Part shown: positions 3,186 through 21,990 of the stretch, one piece after another
Position numbering within the stretch: the first letter of the stretch is position 1
Layout: the number at the start of each line of letters is the position of its first letter
Virus genome (UHGV): UHGV-1648906
Reading direction: 5' to 3' (one strand)
From: a virus
DNA length: 34,350 bases
Notes under the pieces: model-generated
Database searches by the model: none
What the model was told of the DNA's origin: nothing
What the model saw: only the letters and a program-made list of their open reading frames with translations
Translations under genes and position numbers: made by a program

Positions 3186-3230
3186 TTGTATGTTATTTGG
3201 CTATTATAATAAGTAAGTGATTACTTAGTG
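3186..3230. promoter_or_regulatory. divergent promoter region with palindromic -10-like ATTATAAT and adjacent operator-like palindrome
   Basis: TATAAT at 3205-3210, inside the palindromic octamer ATTATAAT (reads the same on both strands); immediately followed by AAGTAA-GTGA-TTACTT (3211-3226). Lies between the divergent helicase and ParB-like genes. Confidence 0.4.
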
Positions 3231-3245
3231 GATTGTAGCAATAAA

Positions 3246-3926
3246 ATGGACGTAAAAATCACGATTTTGCAGGTTGATGTTGCCAACCTTCGCCCGAATA
3301 CCTGGAACACCAATTCGGTTGGTGCGCAGAATTTCGAAAAACTGAAAGGTTCTATCGAAAAATTGGGCTTTTTTAAGCCAATTTTGGCTCGTGAGCTTGA
3401 AGATGGATTTTTTGAAATCCTCGGCGGCGAACATCGCTGGCGTGCTGCTATTGAGCAAGGAATTTCAACGGTTCCTGTGCTTTCTGTGGGCAAAATTAGC
3501 GATGTCGTGGCAAAACAGATGTCACTGGTGGACAACGAGCGATACGGTGAAGACGACCAAATCGCATTGCAACGCTTCATTGAAGAAATTCAGTCAGAAC
3601 TTGACTATCAACTGTCTGAAATCGCCCCGTATGACGACGAAATCTCGATGGTTTTAGCAAAAGAGGCGGCAATCGACCTTGAAGCACTGGAGGCGTTGTC
3701 TCGTGGCGGTGACGAGCCTGTCGATACCGACAAACGAGAGAAAACCGAACGTGTCGGTGCGGAACATCAGACCATGCGCTTCAAAGTAACCTTCGATGCG
3801 TCAGATCGCGTTGCAGAAACCATAAAAAACATCATCAAAGACCAGGCAATTAATACTGGCAATGAAATGGAAAACGCTGGTGAGGCTCTGGTGTGGCTGG
3901 TCGACTACTACAAGGAGCGTATGTAA
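3246..3926 (+). CDS. ParB/Srx-like N-terminal domain protein (ParB-like nuclease domain protein)
   Basis: ParB N-domain pattern around FEILGGEHRWRAAIEQGISTVPV (GxxHRxxA box); stop overlaps the next start (TAATG at 3924-3928). Start uncertain: ATG 3246 or GTG 3228. Confidence 0.7.
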   Translation: MDVKITILQVDVANLRPNTWNTNSVGAQNFEKLKGSIEKLGFFKPILARELEDGFFEILGGEHRWRAAIEQGISTVPVLSVGKISDVVAKQMSLVDNERYGEDDQIALQRFIEEIQSELDYQLSEIAPYDDEISMVLAKEAAIDLEALEALSRGGDEPVDTDKREKTERVGAEHQTMRFKVTFDASDRVAETIKNIIKDQAINTGNEMENAGEALVWLVDYYKERM

Positions 3927-4594
3927 TGACCAAAAAGTTTGAAATCGTATATCGCGACCCGGCAGATCTTATTCCCTATGAGATGAATGCCAAAAAGCAT
4001 GATGAACAGCAGATCCGAGATCTGGCCGCAGCCATTAAAAAGCGCGGATTTGACCAGCCAATTACGGTCGATAAGAACGACGTAATTATTACTGGCCACG
4101 GCCGCCGTGAGGCTGCAATTTTTGCTGGACTTGAGCGCGTACCGGTTATTGTTCGCGATGATCTCAGTGATGACGAGGTTCGTGCGAAGCGTCTTGAAGA
4201 TAACCGACTTGCCAGCATTGATTACGATGCAATTAAGCTACAAAAAGAGCTTGAGTCGCTTGTTCTGGACGATATCGAGGTTTTCGGCTTTGAAGAGCGT
4301 GAGTTGAATGTTCTCGTTGGCAGTATGACAGAAGAAATGGACACCGACTCGCTAGTTATCGATCTTGGCGAAGAAACTAAACGACAGAAGGATGAACACA
4401 CCGAGATCAGTCGTGAAGTTGCAGCGGAAGAAGTACGTGTTGTCGACGTATTGGGCTTTAAAACGCTCCCTGCTGGCTCTGCCATTGTTGTTGGTGATTT
4501 GCTTGCCCATATGGAAGAAATGACGGGAGAAAGCGGGGTAGACGCATTTGTGGCATATGCGGAGAAGATCTCTTCCGGGGAGATGGCTGCATGA
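3926..4594 (+). CDS. second ParB/Srx-like N-terminal domain protein with acidic C-terminal region
   Basis: Motif VIITGHGRREAAIFAGLERVPVIV; SD AAGGAG at 3912-3917; internal ATG at 3926 chosen over the upstream extension of the track ORF. Confidence 0.7.
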   Translation: MTKKFEIVYRDPADLIPYEMNAKKHDEQQIRDLAAAIKKRGFDQPITVDKNDVIITGHGRREAAIFAGLERVPVIVRDDLSDDEVRAKRLEDNRLASIDYDAIKLQKELESLVLDDIEVFGFEERELNVLVGSMTEEMDTDSLVIDLGEETKRQKDEHTEISREVAAEEVRVVDVLGFKTLPAGSAIVVGDLLAHMEEMTGESGVDAFVAYAEKISSGEMAA

Positions 4595-5256
4595 GCAAAT
4601 ACATCATCAACGTATCGTTTCAGACACGCGTAAATAAAACCACGCGCACGTTGGAAATCGCTGAGTCGTTCGGGCTTGGCCTGGACGAAAAAGAGTGGAC
4701 GCTTTACGACAATCTGGAGCTGGAAGTGAAGCAGGGCGATGTGGTGTACATCACCGGCCAATCCGGTTCCGGCAAATCCGTTGTGCTGCGCGAGTTGCAA
4801 CGACAGATGAAGGATGAAGGGCTGTCTGTAGCCTCCATCGATGATTTTACCTTCGATAATGAGGTTAACGTCATCGATCAGTTGGGCAAAACGACCAGCG
4901 ATGCGCTTGGGTTGTTATCTATGGCAGGTCTGAACGATGCATATCTGTTTGTTCGCAAGCCTTCTGAAATGTCAGACGGTCAGAAATATCGTCTCAAGAT
5001 TGCCAAACTGATTGAGTCAGGCGCTAAAGTGTGGGCTGCTGACGAGTTCGGTGCTGTTCTAGACCGTGTAACCGCTCAGGTTGTGGCATCTAACCTCCAG
5101 CGTGCCGCTCGAAAGGTTGGTGCGACGGTAATGGTGGCGACGACTCACGAAGACCTGAAGAACGCGCTGCGCCCGGATATGCAGATCACCAAGCACTACA
5201 AAGAACGCGTGAAGGTGGAATATCACAATGGTAGTCATGATGAGGTTCATTTATGA
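4591..5256 (+). CDS. minimal stand-alone ABC-type ATPase (221 aa)
   Basis: Walker A GQSGSGKS, signature-like MSDGQKYRL, Walker B VWAADEFGAVLD, H-loop VATTHED; ATGA start/stop overlap with the upstream gene. Confidence 0.65.
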   Translation: MSKYIINVSFQTRVNKTTRTLEIAESFGLGLDEKEWTLYDNLELEVKQGDVVYITGQSGSGKSVVLRELQRQMKDEGLSVASIDDFTFDNEVNVIDQLGKTTSDALGLLSMAGLNDAYLFVRKPSEMSDGQKYRLKIAKLIESGAKVWAADEFGAVLDRVTAQVVASNLQRAARKVGATVMVATTHEDLKNALRPDMQITKHYKERVKVEYHNGSHDEVHL

Positions 5257-6143
5257 CGGACATCATCATTAAACGCTACCGCCCTGAAGAGTTTCCGCGT
5301 CATCTGGACTTTCTGGAGCGAATGACTGTCACAAAGGGAACTGTAGAGGACTGGCACGCTCTTAAGTCGCTTCACTACAAAACAGACGGCAAACCTTTCG
5401 CGCCAACTTACTATCGCTGCGAACTTGATGACCGTCTGGTGGGCGTCGTGGTTATGGCTTACCCGAAACTACTGTTGGCACCTCGCCACCGCATGTTTCC
5501 TAAGTTGAAACCAACCACTAATACCACCGTGGCTAACCAGTACTGGGGTCGGTACGTGAATAACAACTTTGCGGTGATCAGTCGCTCAGTTGTGGATACT
5601 CAGTATCGTGGCGTAGGCGTCTCTTATCGAATGATTAACCTGGTTAGCAGGATGCATGACCGGCCAATCATTGAGATCCAGTCCTCGATGAGTAAATACA
5701 ATCCCTTCGCCATGAAAGCAGGGTTTAAGTTCATCCGCCCTGAGCGACCGAAGAGCTATGAAAGTGCACTGCGTGTATTCCAGCGCCATTTCCGTTCCGA
5801 CCCGGGTGATAACGAGGCGATCGTCAAAGAGTTGTTCGCAATGAGCGAGTCTCGTCGTCGCCGTGCACTGCGTGATCTGGTGGCGGACTACCACAAGAAC
5901 AGTTCCCTGGCAAAAGCTGGGCGGAATCGTGGCACGACGATTCAGAACATTGCCGACAGTCTGGTGGACGAGGCCAGCATTGTGAAGCTGCTCAAGGACA
6001 TTCACAACCTGAGCTTTACGTCTCCGTTGTATGGTGTGTATCGAAACCCTGACTTTGGTCGTCGACTGCCTGACACGCTGCCACTGCTGGCATTCGACAA
6101 ACAACCTTTGGATAAACCGTTAGAAATTGCTTTACCGGCATAA
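5253..6143 (+). CDS. hypothetical protein (296 aa); N-terminal half possibly GNAT-fold acyltransferase-like
   Basis: Motif-A-like FAVISRSVVDTQYRGVGVSYRMINLV and NPFAMKAGFKFI; start overlaps upstream stop (coupled). Fold assignment is inference from motifs only. Confidence 0.55.
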   Translation: MTDIIIKRYRPEEFPRHLDFLERMTVTKGTVEDWHALKSLHYKTDGKPFAPTYYRCELDDRLVGVVVMAYPKLLLAPRHRMFPKLKPTTNTTVANQYWGRYVNNNFAVISRSVVDTQYRGVGVSYRMINLVSRMHDRPIIEIQSSMSKYNPFAMKAGFKFIRPERPKSYESALRVFQRHFRSDPGDNEAIVKELFAMSESRRRRALRDLVADYHKNSSLAKAGRNRGTTIQNIADSLVDEASIVKLLKDIHNLSFTSPLYGVYRNPDFGRRLPDTLPLLAFDKQPLDKPLEIALPA

Positions 6144-6152
6144 GGATTTGCC

Positions 6153-6419
6153 ATGACGTTAACCGATAAACAAAAGGACATTATCAAAACGCTCAATCTC
6201 GGTTATGAGCGAGGTCATTTACTTGATCTGGACGAATTGCTTGAAGTTTTGCCGTACAAGACAACCAAGCAAAGTATCCAGTTCTCAATTCGCGCTCTGA
6301 TAAAAAAGGGGCTGGTGGAGAAAGGGCATACGCGCCAACGCAGTGACAATCGCTATCACCGCCGAACTCTTGGGTTAACCACTTTAGGTCGAGCCAAAGC
6401 GAAGTTACTGGTGATGTAA
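6153..6419 (+). CDS. small winged-helix DNA-binding protein (88 aa), putative transcriptional regulator
   Basis: SD AAGGA at 6143-6147; helix-turn-helix-like segment TKQSIQFSIRALIKKGLVEKG with basic C-terminus; last gene of the coupled cassette. Confidence 0.55.
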   Translation: MTLTDKQKDIIKTLNLGYERGHLLDLDELLEVLPYKTTKQSIQFSIRALIKKGLVEKGHTRQRSDNRYHRRTLGLTTLGRAKAKLLVM

Positions 6420-6421
6420 TC

Positions 6422-6520
6422 GGTCTGGGAGCTTATTTAAAGACCTGCTTCTGTATATATAAATAATAAGTAACTTATTAAATATATACGGAAGCAGGCT
6501 TAATAAGACATGCCCAGACC
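6422..6520. repeat. ~100-bp imperfect palindrome (nested inverted repeat)
   Basis: Outer arms GGTCTGGG (6422-6429) and CCCAGACC (6513-6520); inner arms CCTGCTTCTGTATATAT versus ATATATACGGAAGCAGG; centre ATAAGTAACTTAT (6465-6477). Confidence 0.7.
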
Positions 6521-6537
6521 TAATTAAACACCCCAGA

Positions 6538-6609
6538 AAACAAGTTGGTTAGCAGATGCAGTAAACAAGTTGTTTTAGAGCGCATGGACGCGCTCTGTGT
6601 GTTTTAGAG
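6538..6609 (+). promoter_or_regulatory. direct repeats plus hairpin upstream of terS; candidate packaging or regulatory site, or attenuator
   Basis: AAACAAGTTG at 6538-6547 and 6563-6572; GTTTTAGAG at 6572-6580 and 6601-6609; hairpin AGAGCGC-ATGGAC-GCGCTCT (6577-6596) followed by GTGTGTTTT. Confidence 0.4.
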
Positions 6610-6615
6610 GGATCT

Positions 6616-7248
6616 ATGACGGTCGAAAAAGACGAGGTAAAAACTCGCCTGACACCAGCGGAGTGGGCCGAAGCTGAAGCCAAATGGACGTCAGGCGAAT
6701 ATACACTCTCAAAGCTGGAGGAAGAGTACGGCATTCGTCGTGAAACACTCTCCAGACATTTCAAAAAGCGAGGATTAGAGAAAGGCGCGGACTCTGTTGG
6801 GAAGATGGTTCGTGAGTCTCTTAAATCTGACGCAGAGCTTCGCGCTAAAGCCCGTGCGGAAAAGATAGAAGAACGTCGTACACGTTATGACGGCTGGGCG
6901 TATGCGTTGGGGCAGATGGTGATGGTCGAAGTCACTACGGCCAAACGTGAGAGTAAGCCTTTAGGGGCGATTGAGGATTCTCTCAAGAGCTTACAGAGAG
7001 CCAGTAATACCCTTGCAAAATGCTTTGAAGTTTCGTCCAAAGCATTGGGCATGGATCATGCGGAAAATGACGAGGAAGAAATTCCGAACCTGGTATTTGG
7101 TGAGCTTACACCTTCCCAGGTGGCGAAATTACGTCAGGAAGACGACGAGCCTGAAATCATCGATGACGAATTGCTTGAGACGTTGGAAGAAGAAGCTCTA
7201 AGCGAATTTGATGCGACAGATGATGGAAGTGAAGGGGAGGACGAATAA
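6616..7248 (+). CDS. terS: terminase small subunit (putative)
   Basis: Directly upstream of and overlapping terL (TAATG); HTH-like segment YTLSKLEEEYGIRRETLSRHFKKRG; strongly acidic C-terminus. Confidence 0.6.
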   Translation: MTVEKDEVKTRLTPAEWAEAEAKWTSGEYTLSKLEEEYGIRRETLSRHFKKRGLEKGADSVGKMVRESLKSDAELRAKARAEKIEERRTRYDGWAYALGQMVMVEVTTAKRESKPLGAIEDSLKSLQRASNTLAKCFEVSSKALGMDHAENDEEEIPNLVFGELTPSQVAKLRQEDDEPEIIDDELLETLEEEALSEFDATDDGSEGEDE

Positions 7249-8504
7249 TGGCAATCCCGTCCTCGCTCAGTCTTGTGCAACTGCATTCTGGACAGATGAA
7301 AGTCTTCCAGTCTCCGCATCGATTTAAAGTTGTTTGTGCTGGTCGACGCTGGGGAAAATCCCGGTTGTCGATCTCCACTATTATTCGTGCGGCGGCAAAG
7401 GAAAAAAAGCAAAGGGTCTGGTATGTCGCTCCTACTTACCAGATGGCTCGCCAGATTTTGTGGGACGATCTACAGGAAGTTCTGCCTCGTAAGTGGGTTA
7501 GGAAAAAGAACGACACCACGATGACAATCGTGTTGAAGAACGGTTCGGAGATCGCCCTCAAAGGTGCTGATAAGCCTGACACTCTGCGCGGCGTAGCGTT
7601 GCATTTTGTAGTGCTTGATGAATTTCAGGATATGAAGGCTGACACCTGGTACAAGGTGTTACGACCTACTCTTTCATCGACACGCGGCGGTGCACTGATC
7701 ATTGGTACGCCAAAAGGCTTCTCGGAATTTCACAAACTGTGGACTATAGGCCAGAACGTAGAGCTGCAAAGAAAGGGACAGTGGAAGAGCTGGCAGTTTG
7801 TAACTGCCGATTCTCCGTTTGTACCTACGGCGGAAATTGAAGCTGCTAAGAACGATATGGACCCCAAATCGTTCGCTCAGGAGTACCTGGCCAGCTTTGA
7901 GAACATGTCCGGGCGCGTTTACTACCCGTTCGATCGTAACGTGCATGTAAAACCGCTTCAGTTCAACCCTCGGTTGCCTATATGGGTAGGGCAGGACTTC
8001 AACATTGACCCGATGTCTTCAGTAATTTTGCAACCTCAGCCAAATGGTGAGCTATGGGCAATTGATGAATTGGTGCTCTTTTCCTCTAACACGGCAGAAG
8101 TTTGTGATGAGCTTGAGAGACGCTTCTGGCGCTGGAAATCACAGGTAACGGTATTTCCAGATCCGGCAGGTGCTTATCGCCAACATGCTCGTGGGGAGTC
8201 TGACGTAGACATATTCAAAGAGAAGGGATTCTTACGTGTCGATTATTCGAAAAAGCACCCGCCAATTGCGGATCGCGTTAATGCTGTTAACCGAATGCTG
8301 ATGTCCGCATCTGGAGATATCCGGCTGTATATCGATCCGAAGTGCAAGCATTTGATTGATTCACTGGAAAAAGTTATCTACAAGCCTGGAACACGAGATA
8401 TGGATAAGACAGGTGGCATTGAGCATAGTGCAGACGCATTGGGCTATCCAGTACATCGTAGGTATCCAGTCAAAAACCGTGTTATTCTTGGTGGTTCTCG
8501 ATAG
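7248..8504 (+). CDS. terL: terminase large subunit
   Basis: 418 aa; Walker A VVCAGRRWGKS, Walker B FVVLDEF, acidic nuclease-like C-terminal half; SD GGGGAGGA upstream. Confidence 0.85.
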   Translation: MAIPSSLSLVQLHSGQMKVFQSPHRFKVVCAGRRWGKSRLSISTIIRAAAKEKKQRVWYVAPTYQMARQILWDDLQEVLPRKWVRKKNDTTMTIVLKNGSEIALKGADKPDTLRGVALHFVVLDEFQDMKADTWYKVLRPTLSSTRGGALIIGTPKGFSEFHKLWTIGQNVELQRKGQWKSWQFVTADSPFVPTAEIEAAKNDMDPKSFAQEYLASFENMSGRVYYPFDRNVHVKPLQFNPRLPIWVGQDFNIDPMSSVILQPQPNGELWAIDELVLFSSNTAEVCDELERRFWRWKSQVTVFPDPAGAYRQHARGESDVDIFKEKGFLRVDYSKKHPPIADRVNAVNRMLMSASGDIRLYIDPKCKHLIDSLEKVIYKPGTRDMDKTGGIEHSADALGYPVHRRYPVKNRVILGGSR

Positions 8505-8520
8505 GTAAGTAATTATCTAA
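8503..8520. promoter_or_regulatory. intergenic palindromic element TAGGTAAGTAATTATCTA (terL-portal gap)
   Basis: One mismatch from the 11928-11945 copy; ends about 10 bp before the portal start codon. Confidence 0.5.
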
Positions 8521-8530
8521 GGTTATTCAA

Positions 8531-10105
8531 ATGGAATTGAACGACAAACAAATTAAGGATCTGGTGGCGCGACGCCACCCGGAATACGAAAAGAAAAAAG
8601 AACATTGGGACTTCCTCGCCAGCACTTACGCTGGCGGGCGTGGTTGGTTTACAGACAATATCTTTCGTTACTTTAAAGAGGGAGATCAGGAGTTTAAGGA
8701 GCGTGTTGAGCGTGCCTATCGCTTCAACCACACTCGTGAGGTGGTAAACCTCATCAACAAATATCTCTTTAAAGAAGACATTAATAGAAATATCGAAGAG
8801 GCACCAGAGCAGATCCGCAATTTCTGGAAACGTGCGACTCGCCAGAATGCCTCTATTGACTCATTTATGGCCGCCATTGATTTGCAATCGTCAATCTACG
8901 GCCGTATCTGGGTTGTTGTTGATAGCACAATGAGTGGTGATGTTGAGTCAGTAGCTGACGAGAAAAAGAAAGATGCTCGTGCCTACGCCTACTGGATTTC
9001 ACCTCAGCAAATGCTGGATGTGGCATGGGACGACGACGGGAATATGTTATGGGCGTTAATTGTGGAAGTCGCTCGCGATGACGCAGATCCTTTTACTTCT
9101 ACAGGTCAGGAATACCAACGTTATCGTCTGTGGACACAAAACGAGTGGTATCTGTTCCGTGAGGAAGTGAAGAAGGGGGCTGGTGGAGCAGGTCGTCGTC
9201 AGGCAAAAGTTATTTTAGAGGACAGCGGCGCGCATAATCTCGGCGTAGTTCCTGTGTTTCCTGTTGATTGTATTGGAGAAAGTGAATCACCGTATTTCAG
9301 CCCATCGTTGATCGATGATATCGCTTATCTTGATCGTGCGGTTGCAAACTATCTGTCAAACCTTGATGCCATTATTCAGGATCAGACATTTAGCCAGTTG
9401 GCTATACCGGTACAGTCGCTTTTACCTGGTGATGAAAACCACACTAAAGTGCTTGAAATGGGCACAAAGCGAGTCTTCACCTACGATTCTGAAGGTGGAA
9501 ACCAGCCGTTTTATCTGTCACCAGACCCGAAACAAGCTCAGATGATCATCACTACGATTAAGACGGTGATTAACGAAATCTACCATTCAGTTGGTGTAGC
9601 TGGTGAGCGAACGAAGCAGGACAACGCACAGGGAATCGATAATTCATCTGGTGCCGCAAAAATGTATGACTTCCAGCGTGTAAATAGCTTGCTTGTCACA
9701 AAAGCAGAGCGTCTGGAAAGGGCTGAACGCCAAATCATGCTACTGGTTGCGAAATGGATGGGGGTAGATCTGGACGAAGACCACTCTTTAATTGCGTATC
9801 CAGAAAGTTTCGATATTCGTGGCCTTACAGATGAATTTTCTGTTGCCGAGAAACTGTCATTACTTCAGGCACCGGACTCTGTACGTCGTCACCAGATGGA
9901 AATGCTTATTGAGAAGATTTTCCCGAACATTACTGAGGCGATGAAAAAGGAATTTGATAAAGATCTCTTGAATTTTCCTCCAAAAAATGATCTAAATACC
10001 CTTGAAAATAAGTCAGTACTTACTTATGATCGTGGTGCAGCCCAAGAAAGCGGGCAAGATCAACCCCGAGGGAATGGGGACTCATCTACTCAAGAGAACG
10101 AGTGA
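8531..10105 (+). CDS. portal protein
   Basis: 524 aa; position between terL and scaffold/capsid genes; size and acidic C-terminus typical of portals. Family not identified. Confidence 0.7.
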   Translation: MELNDKQIKDLVARRHPEYEKKKEHWDFLASTYAGGRGWFTDNIFRYFKEGDQEFKERVERAYRFNHTREVVNLINKYLFKEDINRNIEEAPEQIRNFWKRATRQNASIDSFMAAIDLQSSIYGRIWVVVDSTMSGDVESVADEKKKDARAYAYWISPQQMLDVAWDDDGNMLWALIVEVARDDADPFTSTGQEYQRYRLWTQNEWYLFREEVKKGAGGAGRRQAKVILEDSGAHNLGVVPVFPVDCIGESESPYFSPSLIDDIAYLDRAVANYLSNLDAIIQDQTFSQLAIPVQSLLPGDENHTKVLEMGTKRVFTYDSEGGNQPFYLSPDPKQAQMIITTIKTVINEIYHSVGVAGERTKQDNAQGIDNSSGAAKMYDFQRVNSLLVTKAERLERAERQIMLLVAKWMGVDLDEDHSLIAYPESFDIRGLTDEFSVAEKLSLLQAPDSVRRHQMEMLIEKIFPNITEAMKKEFDKDLLNFPPKNDLNTLENKSVLTYDRGAAQESGQDQPRGNGDSSTQENE

Positions 10106-10126
10106 TAAGTAACAAAAGGAATTTTT

Positions 10127-11014
10127 ATGAATCTGTGGCAAATGCTTTTGGCCCGTCGTGGTCTGATGGATGTCGCTGAAGCGCATGAGCGTGGAGGCGC
10201 TGGCGGTGTAGCTGCTGATAATGAGCAGAGTACACAAGATCCTGACAAACAGGGTGAACAAAAAGAGCAGCCGAAGGGCGATGACGAATACGCTGGCATG
10301 ACTCAGGAAGAGTTACTGGCCGAACTTCGTAAAACCAAGAAAGCTGGTGCTGAACTGCTGAAGGAGAACATGAAGCGCAAAGAGAAAGAGCGCACATTGG
10401 CCGATCAGCTTGCTCAGTACGGTGATATCGATCCGGCTCGTGCTCGCCAGCTTTTAGAAGCTGAACAGGCCGCAGAAAACGCACGTCGTGAGGCGGAGCA
10501 AGCTGAACTGGAGCGTCGTGGTGAGTTCGATGCTGTTAAAAAACAGATGATCGAAGCACACCAGGCAGAGCTGGCACAGCGTGACGAACGTTATGCAGCA
10601 CTGGAAAGTGAAAACGCATCACTGAAATCTCAATTAGTCGAGATGACCGTGGGCGCTTCCTTCAGTAACTCTCTCTTCCTACGTGACAAAGTTCTGATGA
10701 CCCCGGCAAAAGCCCGCGTGATCTACGGTTCTCATTTTGAAGTGGGTGAAGACGGTAGCGTAGTGGGTTATGACAAACCGGCAGGTCACAAAGAACGAGC
10801 TGTTCTGGTTGACGGTGAAGGTAAGCCGTTGCCGTTTGAATCCGCGATTGAACGCATTGTGCGGGCAGATCCGGAAGCTGACGCATTGATGCGTAGCGAA
10901 GCCAAGCAGGGTGTAGGCTCACATTCCAAATCGACCTACACAATATCCCGACCGAAGAACAAGTCGACTATGGATAAGTTGGCCTCCGGTCTGGGGAAAA
11001 TTGGACTTAAGTAA
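10127..11014 (+). CDS. capsid scaffolding protein (putative)
   Basis: Charged, predicted coiled-coil protein (for example EAEQAAENARREAEQAELERRGE) between portal and major capsid genes; SD AAAGGA. Confidence 0.6.
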   Translation: MNLWQMLLARRGLMDVAEAHERGGAGGVAADNEQSTQDPDKQGEQKEQPKGDDEYAGMTQEELLAELRKTKKAGAELLKENMKRKEKERTLADQLAQYGDIDPARARQLLEAEQAAENARREAEQAELERRGEFDAVKKQMIEAHQAELAQRDERYAALESENASLKSQLVEMTVGASFSNSLFLRDKVLMTPAKARVIYGSHFEVGEDGSVVGYDKPAGHKERAVLVDGEGKPLPFESAIERIVRADPEADALMRSEAKQGVGSHSKSTYTISRPKNKSTMDKLASGLGKIGLK

Positions 11015-11039
11015 CATCTAAATCAAAGGGAATTGATAG

Positions 11040-11918
11040 ATGCCATTACTGCGTGAAGAAGCTGAAAAGCTGTCTAACAACGAACTCGAACAGGGTGTGA
11101 TCGAAACCATCATTGATCGCGATGACCTGTTTGCCATCCTGCCTTTCATGAAGATCAATTCGAAGGCATATCTTTATAACCGCGAAAAAACCCTGAGCGA
11201 AGCTACTTTCATTGATGTGAACGACACCATCACCGAAGGTGCAGCAACCTTCGAAGAGAAAGTTGCGAAGCTGCGCATTCTGGCTGGCGACGTTGACGTC
11301 GACAAATTCCTGGCTACCACTATGGCTGATACCAACAACCAGCTGGCTATCCAGGTTCGTCAGAAAGTCAAAGGTCTGGCTCGTGCCTTCCGTCGCAATC
11401 TGATTGTTGGCGACTCCACCACTAACAACAAAGCCTTCGACGGTATTCCGAAGCTGATGCATGACGATCAGAAGATCGACATCTCCGGCGCATCCATGAC
11501 TTTCTCTATGTTCGACGAACTGGTCGACGCAGTTAAAGATCTGGGCGCAGACTGCATCATGATGCGTTCTGAGCATCTTCGCGCATATCGTGCGCTGCTG
11601 CGAACTGTAAACGTAGGCCCGTCCGAAATCATGATGGAAAACTTCGGTCGACCAATGCTGTGCCATAACGGCGTTCCGTTTATCGTAAACGACTTCATTC
11701 CGGTTGCGGACTCCACCAAAGCGGATATCTACTGTCTGCACCTTTCTGAAGAAAACGGTGTAACTGGTCTGTACGGCGGCGAAAACGCCGGTATCGTTGT
11801 GGAAAACATCGGCACTGTTCAGAACAAAGACGCAGTACGTACTCGTGTGAAGTGGTACTGCTCTCTGGCCAATAAGCACGATAAGGCTATCGCTGCACTG
11901 ACCAATGTAAAAATTTAA
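11040..11918 (+). CDS. major capsid protein
   Basis: 292 aa; codon usage typical of a highly expressed gene (CTG, CGT, GGT, AAC, GAA rich); immediately followed by a strong terminator; position after scaffold. Confidence 0.75.
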   Translation: MPLLREEAEKLSNNELEQGVIETIIDRDDLFAILPFMKINSKAYLYNREKTLSEATFIDVNDTITEGAATFEEKVAKLRILAGDVDVDKFLATTMADTNNQLAIQVRQKVKGLARAFRRNLIVGDSTTNNKAFDGIPKLMHDDQKIDISGASMTFSMFDELVDAVKDLGADCIMMRSEHLRAYRALLRTVNVGPSEIMMENFGRPMLCHNGVPFIVNDFIPVADSTKADIYCLHLSEENGVTGLYGGENAGIVVENIGTVQNKDAVRTRVKWYCSLANKHDKAIAALTNVKI

Positions 11919-11927
11919 TCAGTGCAG

Positions 11928-11945
11928 TAGATAAGTAATTATCTA
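11928..11945. promoter_or_regulatory. intergenic palindromic element TAGATAAGTAATTATCTA
   Basis: Near-palindrome placed between the capsid gene stop and the terminator hairpin. Confidence 0.5.
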
Positions 11946-11949
11946 TGTT

Positions 11950-11980
11950 AAAGGGTGGGCTATACGCCCACCCTTTTTGT
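11950..11980 (+). terminator. rho-independent terminator after the major capsid gene
   Basis: 10-bp stem AAGGGTGGGC / GCCCACCCTT (11951-11960, 11966-11975), 5-nt loop, followed by TTTTGT. Confidence 0.8.
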
Positions 11981-11991
11981 AGGAGCGAGAA

Positions 11992-12912
11992 ATGCCAGAA
12001 CAAAAGATGAAGATTACGGAAGAGGCATTTTCGGATTTTACGGGGCATATGTGCCGTGCCGGATTTACCAATTCTATCTCCGATGAACCTTTAACCGAGC
12101 GACAACAAAGTCAGCTATCTGCTTGTTTGCAGGCGGTTCCCTTCTCCCAATCCGTAAACATAACCCCGGCTTCACCGTCAGTTTTGGTTGGGAAAACTGT
12201 TCAACTTAGTGCAGGTATTACTATGGGTAAGAGTGCCAGTTCATTCACCTGGAAGTCAGCCAATGATCAAATTGCAACCGTCAACGGCACTGGATTAGTA
12301 ACTGGCGTAGCACCAGGCAAAGTGGAAATTACCGCAACTGATCAGGAAACCCAGCTTTCCGCATCAGTGGAAGTCACCGTAAATCCGGTAGCCGTTCAAT
12401 CCGTAACGGTAACGCCAGACTCAACCTCTGTTGAGAAAGGGAAATCAGTCAGTCTGAAAGCGAATGTTCAGCCGTCAAATGCGACGAATAAGGCAGTTAC
12501 CTGGTCTTCCAAAAATGAAGACAAGGCAACGGTAGACCAGAGCGGGAACGTTACTGGTGTAGAAGTTGGCACTGCGACGATTGAGATCGTTTCCCAAGAT
12601 GGCAGCAAAAAGGCAACTGCAACGGTGGAAGTAACTGCGCCTGTTGTGGCTGTTACCGGCGTCGAAATCGACCCAAATAGCACAACCGTTGAGGCAAACA
12701 AAACTGTTCAGCTGACCGCAAATGTCGAGCCGGCAGGAGCCACAAATAAAACCGTTACTTGGGAATCCAAAAATACCGAGTTTGCAACGGTTGACAGCGA
12801 AACCGGTGTTGTAACTGGTGTTGCGGCTGGTACTGCCACAATCGAGGTTACTACCCAAGATGGTAGCCACAAAGCGACAGCAACTGTAGAAGTAACTGCC
12901 GCACAGGAATAA
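11992..12912 (+). CDS. Ig-like (Big_2) domain protein with three tandem domains; putative capsid decoration or surface protein
   Basis: Three repeats of the Big_2 pattern, for example VTVTPDSTSVEKGKSVSLKANVQPSNATNKAVTWSSKNEDKATVDQSGNVTGVEVGTATIEIVSQDGSKKATATVEVT; SD AGGAG upstream. Confidence 0.7.
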   Translation: MPEQKMKITEEAFSDFTGHMCRAGFTNSISDEPLTERQQSQLSACLQAVPFSQSVNITPASPSVLVGKTVQLSAGITMGKSASSFTWKSANDQIATVNGTGLVTGVAPGKVEITATDQETQLSASVEVTVNPVAVQSVTVTPDSTSVEKGKSVSLKANVQPSNATNKAVTWSSKNEDKATVDQSGNVTGVEVGTATIEIVSQDGSKKATATVEVTAPVVAVTGVEIDPNSTTVEANKTVQLTANVEPAGATNKTVTWESKNTEFATVDSETGVVTGVAAGTATIEVTTQDGSHKATATVEVTAAQE

Positions 12913-12956
12913 CCGATATTTGGCGGCTTTCGCCGCCCAAGTGGAGAGAAAGCGTT

Positions 12957-13391
12957 ATGAAACCAGCAAAAATTGTTTTATTAGAACCGCAATTTTCCGG
13001 TTATTCGGGAATGTTGTGCGGCGTTCAGTTCGAGAACGGGGTGTCCGTAGCGGAGTTGCCTTTTATCGATCAGCAAAGGATTTGTGCCTCAATGCGAGCA
13101 TCAACAGTCGAGGGCAAAAATGTTTCTCCGTCTGCCGCATACAGTGATCGTGGCGAGTTGACCGCAGACCTGATTACCGAGCCAGCAGCACCTGACATTG
13201 TACCAATGAAACGTGGGACACCAGATGAACCGGCCAAACAGATCCAGACTTTCACACGAGAAGAGTTGGAGTCAATTGCAGACAATGAAGGCATTGCCGG
13301 TCTACGTGTGATTGGTAATCAGGTTGGTGTCAAAGCGAAAGGAATTGTCGAGATGATTGAAGGCATCCTGAAAGCACAAGGCGGTGAGTAA
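12957..13391 (+). CDS. hypothetical structural protein (144 aa), head module
   Basis: ORF track; SD GGAGAG upstream; stop overlaps next start (TAATG). Confidence 0.5.
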   Translation: MKPAKIVLLEPQFSGYSGMLCGVQFENGVSVAELPFIDQQRICASMRASTVEGKNVSPSAAYSDRGELTADLITEPAAPDIVPMKRGTPDEPAKQIQTFTREELESIADNEGIAGLRVIGNQVGVKAKGIVEMIEGILKAQGGE

Positions 13392-14224
13392 TGGCGCAGA
13401 TCGACTCGTATCGTAGCGGTGAAGCTGTTTCCCTTTCATTTGCCTTCAACGTGCTGGATATCGAATCTGCTACCTACACAGTAAAGGACAGCACCGGGGC
13501 TATTCTCGTTGATGGCGAGCCGCTAGAAATTACCAGCGGTCAAATGTCGATTCCGGTTGTCGTGTCGGCTGAATATAACCAGCTCTCTGAGAAAGAGCGA
13601 GATCTGCGGTACGTCATTGTGAAGGCTGTTGCATCGGGCCTGACGCATGAAGAGCGTCAAATGTATGTTCTGCTGAATAGTTTTGAACTGTCGATACCAG
13701 AACAGTCGTTTGCAACTGTCGCTGATGCTCAAATGCAGGCGATCGATATGCTGAATGGGGACACTTTGCTGTCGGATGGTGAAGGCTTAATGCGCAAGCG
13801 TCTCATTGAGGCTACCAGACGAATTAAAACTTTACCGTTCTCAATCCGCAAAATTCTACGTATCGACTTTGACCGATACGATCGCCCTCAAAATATGCTG
13901 AATGTGTATGACATTCCGTGGGGAGCAGATGGAGCGTACCGGCATGATTTAGTCGATTGGGAAAAGATGACGCAGGAGAAGTTTGAAGAGTTCCCTGACT
14001 ACTTCAAAGAAGCGTTGATGCTTGCCGTTGTCAACGAAGCGTGTGAGATCGCAAATGGCAATGATGTAGCCGCAGCACGAGAGGATGGCATTTTGTCAGA
14101 GTCCATCGGTGAAACAACCAACATGTACCGTACCGGTAAAGCTGCAAACGTGCATGTGGCTCGTAGTACCTGGCGCTTGCTGGTCAGTTACATCAACAAC
14201 CGTATGATTGTTCGCCGTGCGTAA
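13391..14224 (+). CDS. hypothetical structural protein (277 aa), possible head completion or connector
   Basis: ORF track; coupled to the upstream gene; position between head and tail genes. Confidence 0.5.
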   Translation: MAQIDSYRSGEAVSLSFAFNVLDIESATYTVKDSTGAILVDGEPLEITSGQMSIPVVVSAEYNQLSEKERDLRYVIVKAVASGLTHEERQMYVLLNSFELSIPEQSFATVADAQMQAIDMLNGDTLLSDGEGLMRKRLIEATRRIKTLPFSIRKILRIDFDRYDRPQNMLNVYDIPWGADGAYRHDLVDWEKMTQEKFEEFPDYFKEALMLAVVNEACEIANGNDVAAAREDGILSESIGETTNMYRTGKAANVHVARSTWRLLVSYINNRMIVRRA

Positions 14225-14303
14225 CGCCAGTCGCATTATTTACTTTTGGTCTAAAGGGTTTTTGGCCAGTAATGAGAGCGACCGACAACAACAGGGAGAG
14301 AGC

Positions 14304-14648
14304 ATGAATATTTCATGGCAAACAGAAATTGCGATCTACCGCTTTGGCGCAAAGAACGTTTACGGTGAGGCGCAATTACAATTCGTCAGGAAGACGAATG
14401 TCGGCGTGGTTAAGTTCGAACAGAGTAATGAGAAATCGTCAGTTCGTGCTGATAGCTCTGGTAGTCGTGGTAAGGCGAGTCTGGAGCTGTTTGATGCTGT
14501 GTTAGTTGTCCCTTTAGAAGCGGCTGTACAACTTGATGATGTACTGATCCTTGAAGGTCAAAAATTAAAGGTGTCCAGTGTTCATCGCCGCTGGGGGCTA
14601 CGAGGAAGACCTGGGCATCTTGAAGTAGGGGCGAATATATGGGTCTGA
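14304..14648 (+). CDS. hypothetical protein (114 aa), possible head-tail adaptor
   Basis: Internal ATG 14304 with SD GGGAGAG chosen, because the longer track ORF (from 14208) overlaps the upstream gene. Confidence 0.45.
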   Translation: MNISWQTEIAIYRFGAKNVYGEAQLQFVRKTNVGVVKFEQSNEKSSVRADSSGSRGKASLELFDAVLVVPLEAAVQLDDVLILEGQKLKVSSVHRRWGLRGRPGHLEVGANIWV

Positions 14649-15112
14649 AATACGATGCGCATCAGTTCAAACGTGCGGGGAATAGACTCAACAACAGCCA
14701 GAAAGCATTTAAGCGATATCTTATTCGGGACATGGAAAAGCTGGCGCGTTTGGTTGAGCGCCTCAGCCGTGCAATGGCCCCGCTGGAAACCGGATCTCTG
14801 GAGACAGCCATCTTTGCCAGGGTGATTAAAGAAGGTTATTCAGGGCTGCGCATTGAGCTTTCTGTGTCTGGAGCAAAACCACGTCAGGGGCATCCGGGCG
14901 TAGAAGTCGGTGACTATGCTAAGTACATGGAGCTGGGTAAATACCGACTCGGTTATCTTTCTCGAATGAAGAACGTGACAAACCCACCAATTGCCGGTGT
15001 TAAACCTCGTGTTGGGCCACACTTTCTGGAAAGAGCGGTGGAAATTAGCGAGAAGCAGTTCTCAGAAGCGATTCTTGAGGCTGCCAGAAAAGCCGGTTTT
15101 ACGAGAGGTTAA
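14639..15112 (+). CDS. HK97 gp10-like head-tail joining / tail completion protein (putative)
   Basis: 157 aa; segment KPRVGPHFLERAVE resembles the conserved P-F-L-x-P/R-A motif of the HK97 gp10 family; position in the connector module. Confidence 0.55.
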   Translation: MGLKYDAHQFKRAGNRLNNSQKAFKRYLIRDMEKLARLVERLSRAMAPLETGSLETAIFARVIKEGYSGLRIELSVSGAKPRQGHPGVEVGDYAKYMELGKYRLGYLSRMKNVTNPPIAGVKPRVGPHFLERAVEISEKQFSEAILEAARKAGFTRG

Positions 15113-15113
15113 T

Positions 15114-15497
15114 GTGTTTATTGAAGCGTTTGCAAGTTTGATGCAGAAGGCAAAGATTGGCACGGTCGGGACTGACATTTTCTGTCACTACTTGCCTGCC
15201 AATGTGAAATCTGGCGTCCTGCTTATTAACCCAAATACCGGCATCAGCATCGATCATGAGCTACAGGGCTTTTATCACGAATCATTCACAATCATTGTGC
15301 GTGGTTCGTCAATTACTACGACGGTTGAGAAAGCCAATAAAATCATTGAGATGTTTCCAGTAGAGGAAACGGAATCTGGTGGTGTGTATTTTCGACTTGT
15401 ACGACCGATGGCGATGCCAATCATTTATCCCAAAAATGATGGGGCATTAATAGAAGCAGGCATTCCTGTTGAATTTGCTGGCTATTTATTGAATTAA
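15114..15497 (+). CDS. hypothetical tail protein (127 aa), possible tail terminator
   Basis: GTG start at 15114 with SD GAGAGG at 15103-15108; the longer track ORF (14991) overlaps the previous gene. Start uncertain. Confidence 0.4.
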   Translation: MFIEAFASLMQKAKIGTVGTDIFCHYLPANVKSGVLLINPNTGISIDHELQGFYHESFTIIVRGSSITTTVEKANKIIEMFPVEETESGGVYFRLVRPMAMPIIYPKNDGALIEAGIPVEFAGYLLN

Positions 15498-15523
15498 CTC
15501 AATTGGTAAGTATATACTTACTA
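15489..15523 (+). promoter_or_regulatory. sigma70-like promoter overlapping the palindrome TAAGTATATACTTA, upstream of the major tail gene
   Basis: -35 TTGAAT (15489-15494), 18-bp spacer, -10 TATACT (15513-15518); perfect 14-bp palindrome at 15507-15520. Confidence 0.4.
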
Positions 15524-15571
15524 TTAGCGCAATGAATGCGTAGAATTAACGGAAAAAGGAGTTTTCCATCA

Positions 15572-16318
15572 ATGTCTAATACCCATGTAAAAAACATCAA
15601 ACTTGGTGCCTGTAAGGTGTCGTTTGGTGGTGTGGATTTGGGTTACACCAAAGGTGGTGTTCAGGTTGAAATCGCAACCGAAACGCTGAAAGTGACCGTA
15701 GACCAGCTGGGCCAGACCACGATCTCCGAGCTGATCCAGGGCCGCAACATCACCATTACTGCGCCGCTGGCTGAATCCGTGTTGAAAAACATGGTCGATC
15801 TGATGCCAGGTTCCACGCTGAGTTCTGGCGAAGATACCGTAACCATCACGTCTGCGCAGGGAGTGAACCTGATCGACGTTGCGAAAGAGTTGGTGCTGAC
15901 CCCGCAGGATGCGACGGATTATGTTCTGACCATCCCTAAAGCAGCAACCGCGGGTAACTTCACCATGACCTACCAGTCTGACGACGTTCGCGTGTTCTCA
16001 GTTGAGTTTTCCGCTTACCCGGACGACGCTGGCGTGTTGGGGAAAATGAGCCTCCCAAAGCCGGTTGAGAGCGTCACGCTGACCCCGTCTTCACCGACCG
16101 TAAAAGTGGGCACTAAAGTTCAATTGAGCGCAACCTTCACCCCGGCCGATGCAACCAATAAGACTGGCGTGTGGAGCTCTGATGCGACTGATAAAGCGAC
16201 CGTAGATCAGAACGGACTGGTAACTGGTAAAGCTGTCGGTTCAGCCAATATCACCTTCACAACTAATGACGGTGCCAAGAAGGCGACCAAAGCCGTCTCT
16301 GTAACTGCCGCAAGCTAA
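15572..16318 (+). CDS. major tail (tube) protein with C-terminal Big_2 Ig-like domain
   Basis: ATG 15572 with SD AAGGAG; codon usage of a highly expressed gene; C-terminal Big_2 pattern VTLTPSSPTVKVGTKVQLSATFTPADATNKTGVWSSDATDKATVDQNGLVTGKAVGSANITFTT (architecture like lambda gpV). Confidence 0.75.
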   Translation: MSNTHVKNIKLGACKVSFGGVDLGYTKGGVQVEIATETLKVTVDQLGQTTISELIQGRNITITAPLAESVLKNMVDLMPGSTLSSGEDTVTITSAQGVNLIDVAKELVLTPQDATDYVLTIPKAATAGNFTMTYQSDDVRVFSVEFSAYPDDAGVLGKMSLPKPVESVTLTPSSPTVKVGTKVQLSATFTPADATNKTGVWSSDATDKATVDQNGLVTGKAVGSANITFTTNDGAKKATKAVSVTAAS

Positions 16319-16332
16319 ATTGTGATAACCCA

Positions 16333-16360
16333 AGAGGCCCATGGATGGGCCTCTGTATGA
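16333..16360 (+). terminator. probable terminator or attenuator after the major tail gene
   Basis: Stem AGAGGCCCA / TGGGCCTCT (16333-16341, 16346-16354) with 4-nt loop, followed by GTATGAGTTT (weak U-tract). Confidence 0.5.
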
Positions 16361-16379
16361 GTTTAAAAGGATTTAAACC

Positions 16380-16697: not shown

Positions 16698-17047
16698 TTT
16701 CCCGCGATGAATCCGGGACAAGGACCGTCTCAATAGATCTCGGATTCTATTTCAGTCGTGTAGTTGCTCACTACGCCGTGTCGCCATTAGAGCTACTGAA
16801 CGTTCCTCTCACGATGTTCTGGATGCTCAGTCGCAATATAGACCGTCTGCGTGCGGAAGAGGATGTCCGCAACTTACAAGTCGCTCGTGCGTCCCAGGCG
16901 GATGGCGAGGCTGTGAAGGCGTTCATGGAGGGTTTGCAACTCAGGATTGGAAGACCAGTCGTAACAGATAAAGTCTACGATCCAAGCCAGGATAAGGCAG
17001 ACCCTGACGCCAAAGAGCAACTGATGCAAATATTTGGCAGAGGATGA
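16661..17047 (+). CDS. -1 frame extension (gpT-like part of a G-T frameshift fusion chaperone)
   Basis: The -1 frame is open from 16661, overlaps the last 37 nt of the G-like gene and ends at 17047, just before the tape measure start; A-rich run GAAAAAG at 16668-16674 is a possible slip site (not a canonical heptamer). Confidence 0.5.
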   Translation, partial: RKRKSGWRRGKVISRDESGTRTVSIDLGFYFSRVVAHYAVSPLELLNVPLTMFWMLSRNIDRLRAEEDVRNLQVARASQADGEAVKAFMEGLQLRIGRPVVTDKVYDPSQDKADPDAKEQLMQIFGRG

Positions 17048-17054
17048 CAAGGGA

Positions 17055-21578: not shown

Positions 21579-21585
21579 TAAAGCA

Positions 21586-21605
21586 GGCCGCCTTAACGGG
21601 CGGCC
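21586..21605 (+). other. GC-rich stem-loop between tape measure and M genes (no U-tract)
   Basis: GGCCGCC-TTAACG-GGCGGCC; possible RNA stability or processing element. Confidence 0.3.
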
Positions 21606-21621
21606 ATCACAAGGAAGTGAT

Positions 21622-21957
21622 ATGTCGAGGAAAGTATTTAATTGGTATCCAGATTATGAGTCTGAGAAAACCGTAAAGCCTAACGTGATCGTGCTGAACT
21701 ACGGCGACGATTACGAGCAGCGCCAGTCGCAGGGGCTCAATCGGATTAAAGAAGAGTGGTCTCTCACGTTCACCCGTAGCCATGACGTGGTAAACGACGT
21801 TGATGACTTTTTGACTGCCCGCGCTGGGGTGGAGTCATTCATTTGGACTAACCCAAGAGGCAAAGCAATTATCGTGGTTTGTGACAGCCATACGGTAAAG
21901 CGTTACCCCGGTTATCAAGTGCTTACGGCAACATTTAGACAGGTTTTTGAGTCTTAA
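21622..21957 (+). CDS. minor tail protein M (lambda gpM-like)
   Basis: 111 aa from ATG 21622 (SD AAGGAAG); motifs NYGDDYEQRQSQGLNRIKEEWSLTF and ESFIWTNP parallel lambda gpM (FGDGYSQR...GLN...SFLWTPP). Confidence 0.85.
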   Translation: MSRKVFNWYPDYESEKTVKPNVIVLNYGDDYEQRQSQGLNRIKEEWSLTFTRSHDVVNDVDDFLTARAGVESFIWTNPRGKAIIVVCDSHTVKRYPGYQVLTATFRQVFES

Positions 21958-21966
21958 CTTGCGACT

Positions 21967-21990
21967 ATAGATAAGTAATTACTTATCTAT
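21967..21990. promoter_or_regulatory. perfect 24-bp palindrome ATAGATAAGTAATTACTTATCTAT
   Basis: Identical on both strands; sits in the M-L intergenic gap directly before a hairpin. Confidence 0.55.

Follow-up and report, generated by a model that had tools for sequence, protein, structure and literature searches.

A recurrent 18-base-pair dyad at the gene boundaries of SSU5-type phage-plasmids is a probable operator of a phage-encoded regulator

The window analysed here, the whole 34,350-nucleotide (nt) stretch of the virus genome UHGV-1648906, is part of an SSU5-like phage-plasmid and carries a family of AT-rich palindromes in the gaps between its genes. Over positions 6000-16000 the window shares 97% identity with Escherichia phage Cyrano (pLF82) and CMS-2020a, 81% with Salmonella phage SSU5 and 80% with a group of Klebsiella phage-plasmids. 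The gene order, taken from the records of these relatives together with a Pfam and a PHROG scan, comprises a minus-strand block coding for a FljA-like repressor, a 197-amino-acid (aa) protein, a 92-aa protein and a DEAD-box helicase, and a plus-strand series that starts with two ParB-like genes, ABC-type ATPase genes, a 296-aa gene and an 88-aa gene, p88. Next come terS, terL and the portal, DUF6651, major capsid and head-tail genes, and the series ends with the genes for an Ig-domain tail protein, the chaperones, the tape-measure protein, the tail-tip proteins and a giant tail protein. The palindromes, which an original prediction made from the letters of the window had grouped into one family, are true copies of an 18-base two-fold-symmetric DNA signal that marks about 25-40 gene boundaries per SSU5-type phage-plasmid.

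The element is an 18-base-pair (bp) dyad, TA(A/G)GTAA-N4-TTAC(T/C)TA, with a 7-4-7 geometry, and the general form of the site is T-N-AGT-N-A / N4 / T-N-ACT-N-A. Its centre tends to GTNN or NNAC, and its flanks are weakly symmetric and AT-rich (A-W-R-A ... T-Y-W-T). A symmetrised position matrix, trained on relatives only and with Cyrano kept outside the training set, finds seven loci in the window with scores of 16.7-31.6, compared with 10.7 for the best of 30 shuffles; six of the seven are intergenic. The genome-wide scan called for by the original prediction was made on the complete Cyrano genome, 13% of which is intergenic, and returned 26 loci, 25 of them intergenic, compared with 0-2 in the shuffles. 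The full 18-mer with up to three mismatches is matched six times in the window, where 0.01 matches are expected. Also, the motif is far from equally frequent in coding sequence: TAAGTAA is the top enriched intergenic 7-mer of the window, with seven copies in 4.5 kb (0.3 expected) and one in 29.8 kb of coding sequence, and it is the top enriched word of the complete Cyrano genome, with 22 intergenic copies against 2.3 expected and one in 93 kb of coding sequence. The word ATAAGTAA occurs 15 times between genes in Cyrano (0.66 expected) and never within them. Both words lead the intergenic k-mers of the window, of Cyrano and of a Klebsiella relative of 72% identity, and both are among the top-enriched ones of SSU5.

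The sites are concentrated 0-20 nt past the upstream stop codon and several provide that stop. All three frames are stopped in TAGATAAGTAA and TAGGTAAGTAA, and the motif holds the ends of several upstream genes, as would be seen if the palindromes were a by-product of AT-rich intergenic composition or of selection for three-frame stops. However, the same gaps are occupied in other lineages by TCAGTCA and TAAGTCA half-sites, which are without these three-frame stops and rule out a stop signal of this kind, and the enrichment stands against dinucleotide-preserving or first-order nulls; the probability left to this explanation is practically negligible. The motif was also considered as a sigma-70 -10 element, as a Shine-Dalgarno variant (TAAGTAAGT versus TAAGGAGGT) and as a Fur box (GATAAT repeats); key positions differ by eye in each case and the lineage variants exclude all three. 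An apparent series of arm spacings of 0, 4 and 8 was discarded, as it mostly consists of the same sites read in other registers, an effect of the 4-nt repeat (TAAG-TAAG) within the half-site.

Every palindrome of the original list is found in the window, three of them one base away from the position first given. The dyad TAAGTAA-GTGA-TTACTTA (3210-3227, score 23.8) lies in the divergent gap between the DEAD-box helicase operon on the minus strand and the ParB-like operon on the plus strand, and this gap holds a dyad in all nine genomes compared, with the lineage-specific half-site in Acinetobacter and Aeromonas. TATAAT (3205-3210), which together with TATACT (15513-15518) had been pointed out as a -10 element, abuts the dyad on the plus strand, and TATTAT begins at the terminal TA on the minus strand. 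With -10-like hexamers on both strands, one bound protein could therefore control both divergent operons. In the gap between terL and the portal gene, TAGGTAA-GTAA-TTATCTA (TAGGTAAGTAATTATCTA, score 21.4) lies at 8502-8519 rather than 8503-8520, and its first three bases are the terL stop codon. A dyad is present here in nine of nine genomes, with TCAGTCA-CTAC-TGACTGA in Acinetobacter and TCAGTAA-ATAC-TTACTAA in Aeromonas. The dyad TAAGTCA-GTAC-TTACTTA (TAAGTCAGTACTTACTTA, 10009-10026, score 30.9) is absent from the original list. It belongs to the 3' end of the portal coding sequence, with the DUF6651 and capsid genes downstream, and is kept in Cyrano and SSU5; the claim that the palindromes occur only between genes thus holds for six of the seven loci.

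Downstream of the capsid gene, TAGATAA-GTAA-TTATCTA (11928-11945, score 20.7) is followed by a terminator-like hairpin (11953-11969) with a T-run, and the order of stop codon, dyad and terminator recurs in nearly all compared lineages with a dyad in this gap. The palindrome GTAAGTA-TA-TACTTAC (15506-15521; 15503-15520 in the 7-4-7 register; score 23.8), upstream of the major tail (Ig-domain) gene, overlaps a promoter-like match, TTGAAT-18-TATACT, and the core of this feature (15503-15522) is the best kept of all gaps, with an identity of 0.92 compared with 0.73 in the rest of the gap. The perfect 24-bp palindrome ATAGATAAGTAATTACTTATCTAT (21967-21990) holds the dyad in two registers, 21968-21985 and 21972-21989, with scores of 31.6 and 28.3, and its Klebsiella orthologue differs in one central base. 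TATTAT (21988-21993) and a second terminator-like hairpin (22000-22024) with a T-run come next, so that both terminators noted in the original prediction are in place.

Two further features are uncertain members. The match at 6460-6477, which contains AAGTAACTT, has the lowest score (16.7) and forms the centre of a 55-bp palindrome (6444-6498) whose arms, CCTGCTTC(T/C)GTATATA, are matched at 6444-6459 and 6483-6498; the core listed originally, ATAAGTAACTTAT, is present at 6466-6478, not 6465-6477. Its membership is uncertain because it is the weakest match and is not kept in the Klebsiella relative of 72% identity. The solitary half-site GATAAGTAA, an exact match directly past the portal stop on the plus strand (10104-10112, not 10105-10113), is kept in six enteric genomes and absent from the same Klebsiella relative; here membership is uncertain because a partner arm is seen in none of the relatives compared. 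One more TAAGTAA, at 11008-11014, was rejected as a chance Lys-stop, which reads CAAGTAA in SSU5, pMT1, Cronobacter and Klebsiella.

The half-site T-N-AGT-N-A depends on the lineage, and the 7-4-7 spacing and the orthologous gaps are kept. Enterics and Halomonas have TAAGTAA, Aeromonas has TCAGTAA, Acinetobacter has TCAGTCA, and Photobacterium, Magnetospirillum, Massilia, Chitinibacter and others among the beta- and other proteobacteria have TAAGTCA. The half-site is CTAGT(C/A)A at the locus L030, and the site reads ATAGTCA-AAAC-TGACTAT in Paraburkholderia, TARGTAT...ATACCTA in Xenorhabdus and, consistently asymmetric, TTAGTTA-CCAC-TTACTAA in Castellaniella. Dyads recur across lineages in the gaps helicase/ParB, p88/terS, terL/portal, capsid/next gene and M/L and in those of the tail genes, and from E. 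coli to Acinetobacter and Aeromonas it is the same gaps that hold them. Across the phage-plasmids of E. coli, Salmonella, Klebsiella and Yersinia the motif is identical. Among the enteric relatives the core of the dyad has an identity of 0.81, compared with 0.63 for the rest of the same gaps (p = 1.6e-5), which indicates that the dyads are under selection. Because the half-site varies by lineage with geometry and gaps constant, the concerted change of about 30 sites at kept positions points to a sequence-specific, phage-encoded recognition factor that would co-evolve with them.

The original prediction saw in the palindromes a coordination of late-gene expression. This restriction was not borne out: the Cyrano sites adjoin, besides late genes, those for helicase/primase, UvsY/gp32, SbcCD, NrdAB, ThyX, Dam and RNase H. 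The plasmid-maintenance modules of Cyrano and a block of small genes at 85-105 kb are devoid of dyads.

As for promoters, the late region is depleted in sigma-70-like matches (9 versus 19 expected). The best promoter-like match between 3000 and 22500, TTGAAA (10002-10007) -17- TATGAT (10025-10030) on the plus strand, agrees at 10 of 12 positions with the consensus, and its spacer is filled by the 10009-10026 dyad. In the TAAGTCA lineages many dyads have a TTGACA-like hexamer that ends 1-3 nt upstream and a TANNNT that starts from the terminal TA, so that the dyad spans -28 to -11, as in TTGACA-ca-TAAGTCACCAGTGAAT-TACTAT, TTGACA...TAAACT and TTGAAA...TATAGT. In these lineages the directly upstream -35 scores higher in the sense than in the antisense orientation (p = 6e-5), and no such sense-side excess is found in the enterics, Acinetobacter or Aeromonas. 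Upstream of terS, five lineages share a strong promoter in which the -35 is fused to the right arm and the dyad occupies -50 to -33. TANNNT is over-represented at the terminal TA, in the sense orientation at 56 of 102 sites and in the antisense orientation at 44 of 89. An association of the palindromes with promoters thus holds for some sites, such as the 10002-10030 promoter, many sites of the TAAGTCA lineages and the terS promoter of five lineages, and is not clear for most enteric sites. A -10 element at a fixed distance downstream was rejected, as it adds no information beyond the dyad and its short symmetric flanks.

In gaps with a canonical terminator the order is stop codon, dyad, terminator and next gene. 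The terminator hairpins are separate from the dyads, 7-10 nt downstream of two of them. The dyad itself was dismissed as an intrinsic terminator, since the terminator scan reports none and the stems are AU-rich, at -4.3 to -9.9 kcal/mol. In the post-capsid gap of most lineages, transcription is predicted to start about 7 nt past the -10-like hexamer, within the 5' stem arm of the terminator, and transcripts that started locally might bypass the terminator.

We propose that the elements are double-stranded DNA operators recognised by a phage-encoded dimeric regulator, and that in SSU5-type phage-plasmids they overlap or adjoin the core promoters that serve the lytic transcription units. To act as an operator of such a regulator at these promoters is the probable function of the dyad, although protein binding, the identity of the binder and the effect on transcription are all things that we infer. 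The dimeric DNA-binding protein deduced from the dyad symmetry in the original prediction is likewise the reading best supported by the fixed 7-4-7 geometry, the lineage-varying half-site and the lack of an RNA-type wobble bias (see below). Relative to the best promoter-like hexamers, the operators would have three placements, namely in the spacer, overlapping the -35 and just downstream of a -10-like hexamer. Through the occupied sites, the regulator would govern the access of RNA polymerase at about 25-40 places at once.

Several observations weigh against this proposal. Most enteric sites have no recognisable -35, and the -10-like hexamers of Cyrano are found at 15 of 26 sites in the sense and at 11 of 26 in the antisense orientation. 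Because the two counts are nearly equal, the -10-likeness of the enteric sites appears to be part of the symmetric flank, and the link to promoters is clear for a minority of enteric sites only. Several sites lie in gaps of 21-33 nt, which leave little or no leader for a start site. A dyad upstream of the terminator in shared gaps is odd for a promoter, and the order fits one only if transcription starts inside the terminator stem. A few enteric sites are in another register, with a 7-2-7 arrangement at 15506-15521 and arms of 12 + 12 at 21967-21990. The recognition helix of p88, the protein discussed below as candidate regulator, is almost identical in lineages with different half-sites, and a search of the accessible literature yielded no reports of binding or transcription for the SSU5 phage family. 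The remaining points are of a kind expected of a hairpin. The arms of the 11928 site changed together, from G-C in Cronobacter and Klebsiella through G·T in SSU5 and pMT1 to A-T in the window and Cyrano; in pMT1, two C-to-T changes yield G·U pairs; and some sites keep their symmetry, and with it the potential to form a hairpin, in a different register.

Such hairpins in the sense transcript could serve mRNA processing or stabilisation by a phage protein or host RNase, or a nut/boxB-like antitermination before the terminators. The sites abut stop codons and precede terminators, solitary half-sites are present on the sense strand, and some loops are GNRA-like (GUAA, GUGA), all of which would suit an RNA element. 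However, among 138 non-redundant sites, with arm positions read on the sense strand, the mismatches between arms comprise 47 G·U, 40 A·C and 109 others, without an overall bias to wobble pairs (G·U versus A·C, p = 0.52). In three lineages the terL/portal site has TAAGTAA opposite TTACCTA, an A·C mismatch on the sense strand. Arms also vary independently at position 3. Two lineages have consistently asymmetric or decayed arms: Castellaniella and the locus L029, in which the left arm is perfect and the right arm has decayed to TGAnnTA. The predicted RNA hairpins are weak, with five at -4.3 to -6.8 kcal/mol, the 24-mer at -9.9 kcal/mol and z-scores mostly of -1.5 to -2.8. The loop sequences are not constant across lineages, and an Rfam scan found no family at gathering score for the dyads. 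A mechanism of the ribonucleic antiterminator (RAT) type is unfit, as the dyad lies outside the terminator stems. The pairing statistics thus give no sign of selection for an RNA hairpin, and the RNA element, which the original prediction had entertained as a processing signal, is improbable. On balance, the element appears to be a duplex-DNA recognition site, in which strand-specific structure may have a secondary role.

If the dyads are operators, we lean, with somewhat less than even confidence, towards a regulator that represses or silences the lytic promoters, because all three operator positions would occlude the promoter, because several lineages have near-consensus promoters and the candidate regulator has a predicted MarR fold, and because the sites in gaps too short for a useful promoter resemble stoperators (see below). 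The opposite direction, in which an activator resembling Lpa of phage P1 serves promoters without a -35, is possible yet doubtful. It is suggested because most enteric sites lack a -35 and resemble the P1 late promoters, because the placement of p88 matches that of lpa upstream of pacA in P1, because the plasmid-maintenance modules and the 85-105-kb block of Cyrano have no sites, as if an early product switched on the rest, and because the motif evolves very slowly across hosts, unlike immunity specificities. In the most far-reaching version, which we regard as unlikely, one small MarR-like factor would run the whole lytic programme at about 30 dyads fused to compact 'promoter-over-terminator' modules. 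Such a module would consist of a stop codon, the dyad, a -10-like hexamer and a terminator with the predicted start in its 5' stem; read-through transcripts would end at the terminator, and factor-controlled starts would miss the full stem and pass through. We know of no description of such an arrangement.

The best candidate for the binding protein is p88 (6153-6419, plus strand), an assignment that we hold tentatively. The gene is the last of the ParB-like operon and lies directly upstream of terS, as do its orthologues at 22 loci; the place beside terS is kept throughout the family. The original prediction had named its product as a small winged helix-turn-helix protein, and models agree: the AlphaFold model, with a mean predicted local distance difference test (pLDDT) of 81.6, is matched by Foldseek to MepR, ZitR, AdcR and MarR with a probability of 1.0 and template modelling (TM) scores of 0.70-0.76, which points to a MarR-type winged helix. 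The protein belongs to phrog_900, which has no annotated function, and neither a Pfam family nor a sequence match to solved structures was found for it. At 88 aa, it lacks most of the MarR dimerisation helices. The predicted recognition helix, TTKQSxQFSIRALIKK, is nearly invariant and parallels the invariant AGT core of the site. Half-sites with A at position 2 go with QS at residues 40-41, those with C go with QA, and two of the three lineages with T or A have AS; at residue 52, K goes with A at position 6, and four of five lineages with C there have H or N instead. The roughly 10 lineages behind this covariation are few, related and not independent, and we take it as a tentative lead, not as a demonstration.

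Other proteins were weighed as well. The 92-aa protein, the second binder named in the original prediction, has a ribbon-helix-helix-like appearance and is a weaker candidate, as its putative DNA-reading strand differs among phages that share the identical motif. ParB-like protein 1 or a factor encoded outside the window are possible regulators too. In the alignment, the conserved C-terminus of ParB-like protein 1 resembles a ribbon-helix-helix domain. The 3210 dyad is immediately followed by two genes that code for a ParB N-terminal domain and that are kept, together with the ABC-type ATPase gene, in all lineages examined. Hence the dyads might instead be sites of these two adjacent ParB-like proteins, dispersed palindromes like parS or the KorB sites (OB) that act in partition, condensation or long-range silencing. 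However, about 26-40 copies, one per gap across the lytic modules, exceed those of the known parS systems, no dyad lies near the ParA-type partition module of Cyrano (29.3-30.3 kb), and the motif has no sequence likeness to known parS or OB sites, which makes this explanation hardly probable.

The region around p88 has further features. Between the helicase gene and p88 (3228-6143) lie two ParB/Srx-domain genes, an ABC-type ATPase gene and the 296-aa gene, which PHROG annotates as 'ABC transporter ATP-binding subunit', and all lineages examined, E. coli, Acinetobacter and Aeromonas among them, keep this block. Between p88 and terS, a large palindrome (6433-6505), CCTGCTTCTGTATATAT...ATATATACGGAAGCAGG, has a predicted RNA or single-stranded DNA fold of -30.8 kcal/mol (z = -8.3). 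It is in the centre of this palindrome that the linear GenBank records of SSU5 and Cyrano start and finish. The centre in SSU5 is AAGTGACTT, identical to the -22 box of P1 late promoters, and Cyrano has a second copy of the palindrome at about 31150-31210, upstream of replication genes. The palindrome may be a genome end, a bidirectional terminator, an origin or a regulatory site. A second dyad, AAACAAGTTG(G/T)TT, is present twice (6538-6550 and 6563-6575), directly followed by a terminator-like hairpin (6576-6597) with a T-run, 19 nt before the start of terS. The related words AGAAAACA, GAAAACAA and AACAAC are also enriched between the genes of Cyrano, SSU5 and the Klebsiella relative of 72% identity. 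This suggests a second family of regulator sites and a possible promoter-terminator arrangement ahead of the late operon that would resemble pR'-tR' of lambda.

Of the systems known from other elements, the 'stoperators' of mycobacteriophage L5, which are bound by gp71 and were reportedly described by Brown, Sarkis, Wadsworth and Hatfull in 1997, are similar in distribution. They are said to comprise tens of copies of a short motif in short intergenic gaps over early and late regions, some at promoters and others within operons, in a largely one-directional genome and with a motif that varies between related phages; the dyads, with 25 of 26 loci between genes in Cyrano and six of seven in the window, show a stoperator-type dispersed intergenic distribution. 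However, stoperators are 13-bp, asymmetric and strictly oriented, in contrast to an 18-bp dyad of modest polarity. Its upstream arm is better kept, with 164 left-arm matches in the sense and 134 in the antisense orientation, and the polarity is clear in some lineages only (L029 and L031). Also, immunity specificities evolve fast, unlike a motif that is the same in the enteric phage-plasmids named above. Stoperators are bound by the immunity repressor and block elongating RNA polymerase.

The late promoters of the phage-plasmid P1, of which seven annotated ones were compared, are similar in another way. Their Lpa-dependent -22 box, AAGT(G/T)ACTT (AAGTNACTT, 9 bp), is followed after 4 nt by a TANNNT -10. 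It shares with the dyads a palindromic form with AAGT/ACTT half-sites, a place ahead of a -10-like hexamer or across it, the usual lack of a -35 and the occurrence in a phage-plasmid of enterobacteria. The gene that directly precedes the small terminase gene of P1 is that of the activator, lpa, and p88 has the same place here; the terS-proximal palindrome of SSU5 even contains AAGTGACTT. However, the dyad is an 18-bp 7-4-7 element in which TANNNT, if present, begins at position 17, within the last two bases. In the window only the centre of the 6444-6498 palindrome contains AAGTAACTT, with no TANNNT 4 nt after it. A phmmer search for Lpa (gp10) homologues among all open reading frames of the window, Cyrano and SSU5 found none (best E 0.33), and the hhalign comparison of the p88 profile with Lpa gave a probability of 0.1. 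Unlike the Lpa promoters, which serve late operons (morphogenesis and lysis), the dyads also lie beside replication, recombination and nucleotide-metabolism genes. The C1 operators of P1 are likewise numerous and dispersed on a phage-plasmid, some exactly in a promoter spacer, as is Oref, which in the P1 record separates the -35 of P2ref from its -10; they differ in being 17-bp and asymmetric, with an unrelated sequence and protein.

MarR dimers bind (pseudo)palindromes of 16-20 bp that usually overlap the -35/-10 region, and p88 has a predicted MarR-type winged-helix core. In contrast to MarR systems, p88 has 88 aa, without most of the dimerisation helices and without a Pfam match, and about 30 sites would form a far larger regulon than is typical. 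KorB of RK2 has 12 dispersed palindromic sites, some next to a -35, and the phage-plasmid N15 has four dispersed SopB centromeres that affect late-gene expression. Like the dyads, one of which adjoins ParB-like genes, these are dispersed palindromes said to influence many operons; their sequences are unrelated to the dyad and their copy numbers (12 and 4) lower. Each of these known systems thus shares some features with the dyads and differs from them in others.

The window itself is a mosaic. Up to about 15.5 kb and again at 16.4-20.5 kb it shares 98-100% identity with the E. coli phage Cyrano; at 15.6-16.4 kb (the major tail gene) and from about 20.6 kb it shares 96-100% with a Klebsiella phage-plasmid. 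The last 8.6 kb are matched in 393 Klebsiella and 7 Escherichia records, which suggests that tail and host-range modules have been exchanged between E. coli and Klebsiella elements. With sites at gene boundaries in a mosaic genome, the dyads could be module-boundary sequences used in recombinational shuffling, as in the promoter-early stem-loop (PeSL) cassettes of T4 and the boundary sequences of lambdoid phages, or miniature mobile elements. However, the breakpoints lie at about 15.55 kb in a conserved ribosome-binding region, downstream of the dyad, at about 16.4 kb in a terminator gap and at about 20.5 kb inside the tape-measure gene, and none of them is at a dyad. Neither target-site duplications nor presence/absence polymorphisms of a discrete unit are seen, and positions that are stable in very distant lineages with a sequence changing in concert argue for recognition, not mobility. 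A boundary or mobile element is very improbable, and the operator reading remains the preferred one.

At one end of the window, the minus-strand gene at 28-552 codes for a protein homologous over its full length to FljA, which represses phase-1 flagellin in Salmonella (PF03614, E = 5e-81; phrog_1444, 'transcriptional repressor'), and this phage-plasmid copy could affect flagellin expression of the host or act as a phage regulator. At the other end (about 25700-34350, plus strand), where no long open reading frame had been listed, one giant tail-protein gene exits the window; relatives of 98-99% identity annotate it as 'phage tail protein' or DUF1983. Outside the window, at 60100-62430 of Cyrano, the words CTACAGTGGATA and AGTGGATA are strongly enriched between genes (AGTGGATA 8 versus 0.2 expected), with two copies close to the repA gene, and are taken to be putative plasmid iterons or DnaA-box-like sites.

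Clinical enterobacteria commonly carry phage-plasmids of the SSU5 type, which occur outside them as well. With a 3.9-kb probe, 967 plasmid records were matched, and a capsid-based scan with one genome per species placed relatives in many proteobacterial orders. The family includes pMT1/pFra of Yersinia pestis and presumably also pHCM2 of S. Typhi. Published work describes members with resistance genes. A search of the accessible literature returned no description of the dyad motif or of transcriptional control in the SSU5 family. We take the dyad to be a phage regulon signal, probably an operator, and see a moderate chance that its combination with a terminator-overlapping restart promoter is an unusual architecture. 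If true, promoter-over-terminator modules under one small factor would be a Gram-negative, dyad-symmetric counterpart of the mycobacteriophage stoperators plus a terminator-bypass restart. One 18-bp signal that is present at nearly every lytic transcription unit and co-varies with lineage offers a handle for the annotation of promoters and operons and a short list of candidate master regulators, with p88 first. It may also allow cross-immunity or cross-regulation between co-resident phage-plasmids to be predicted and may provide a route to their deliberate induction or silencing.

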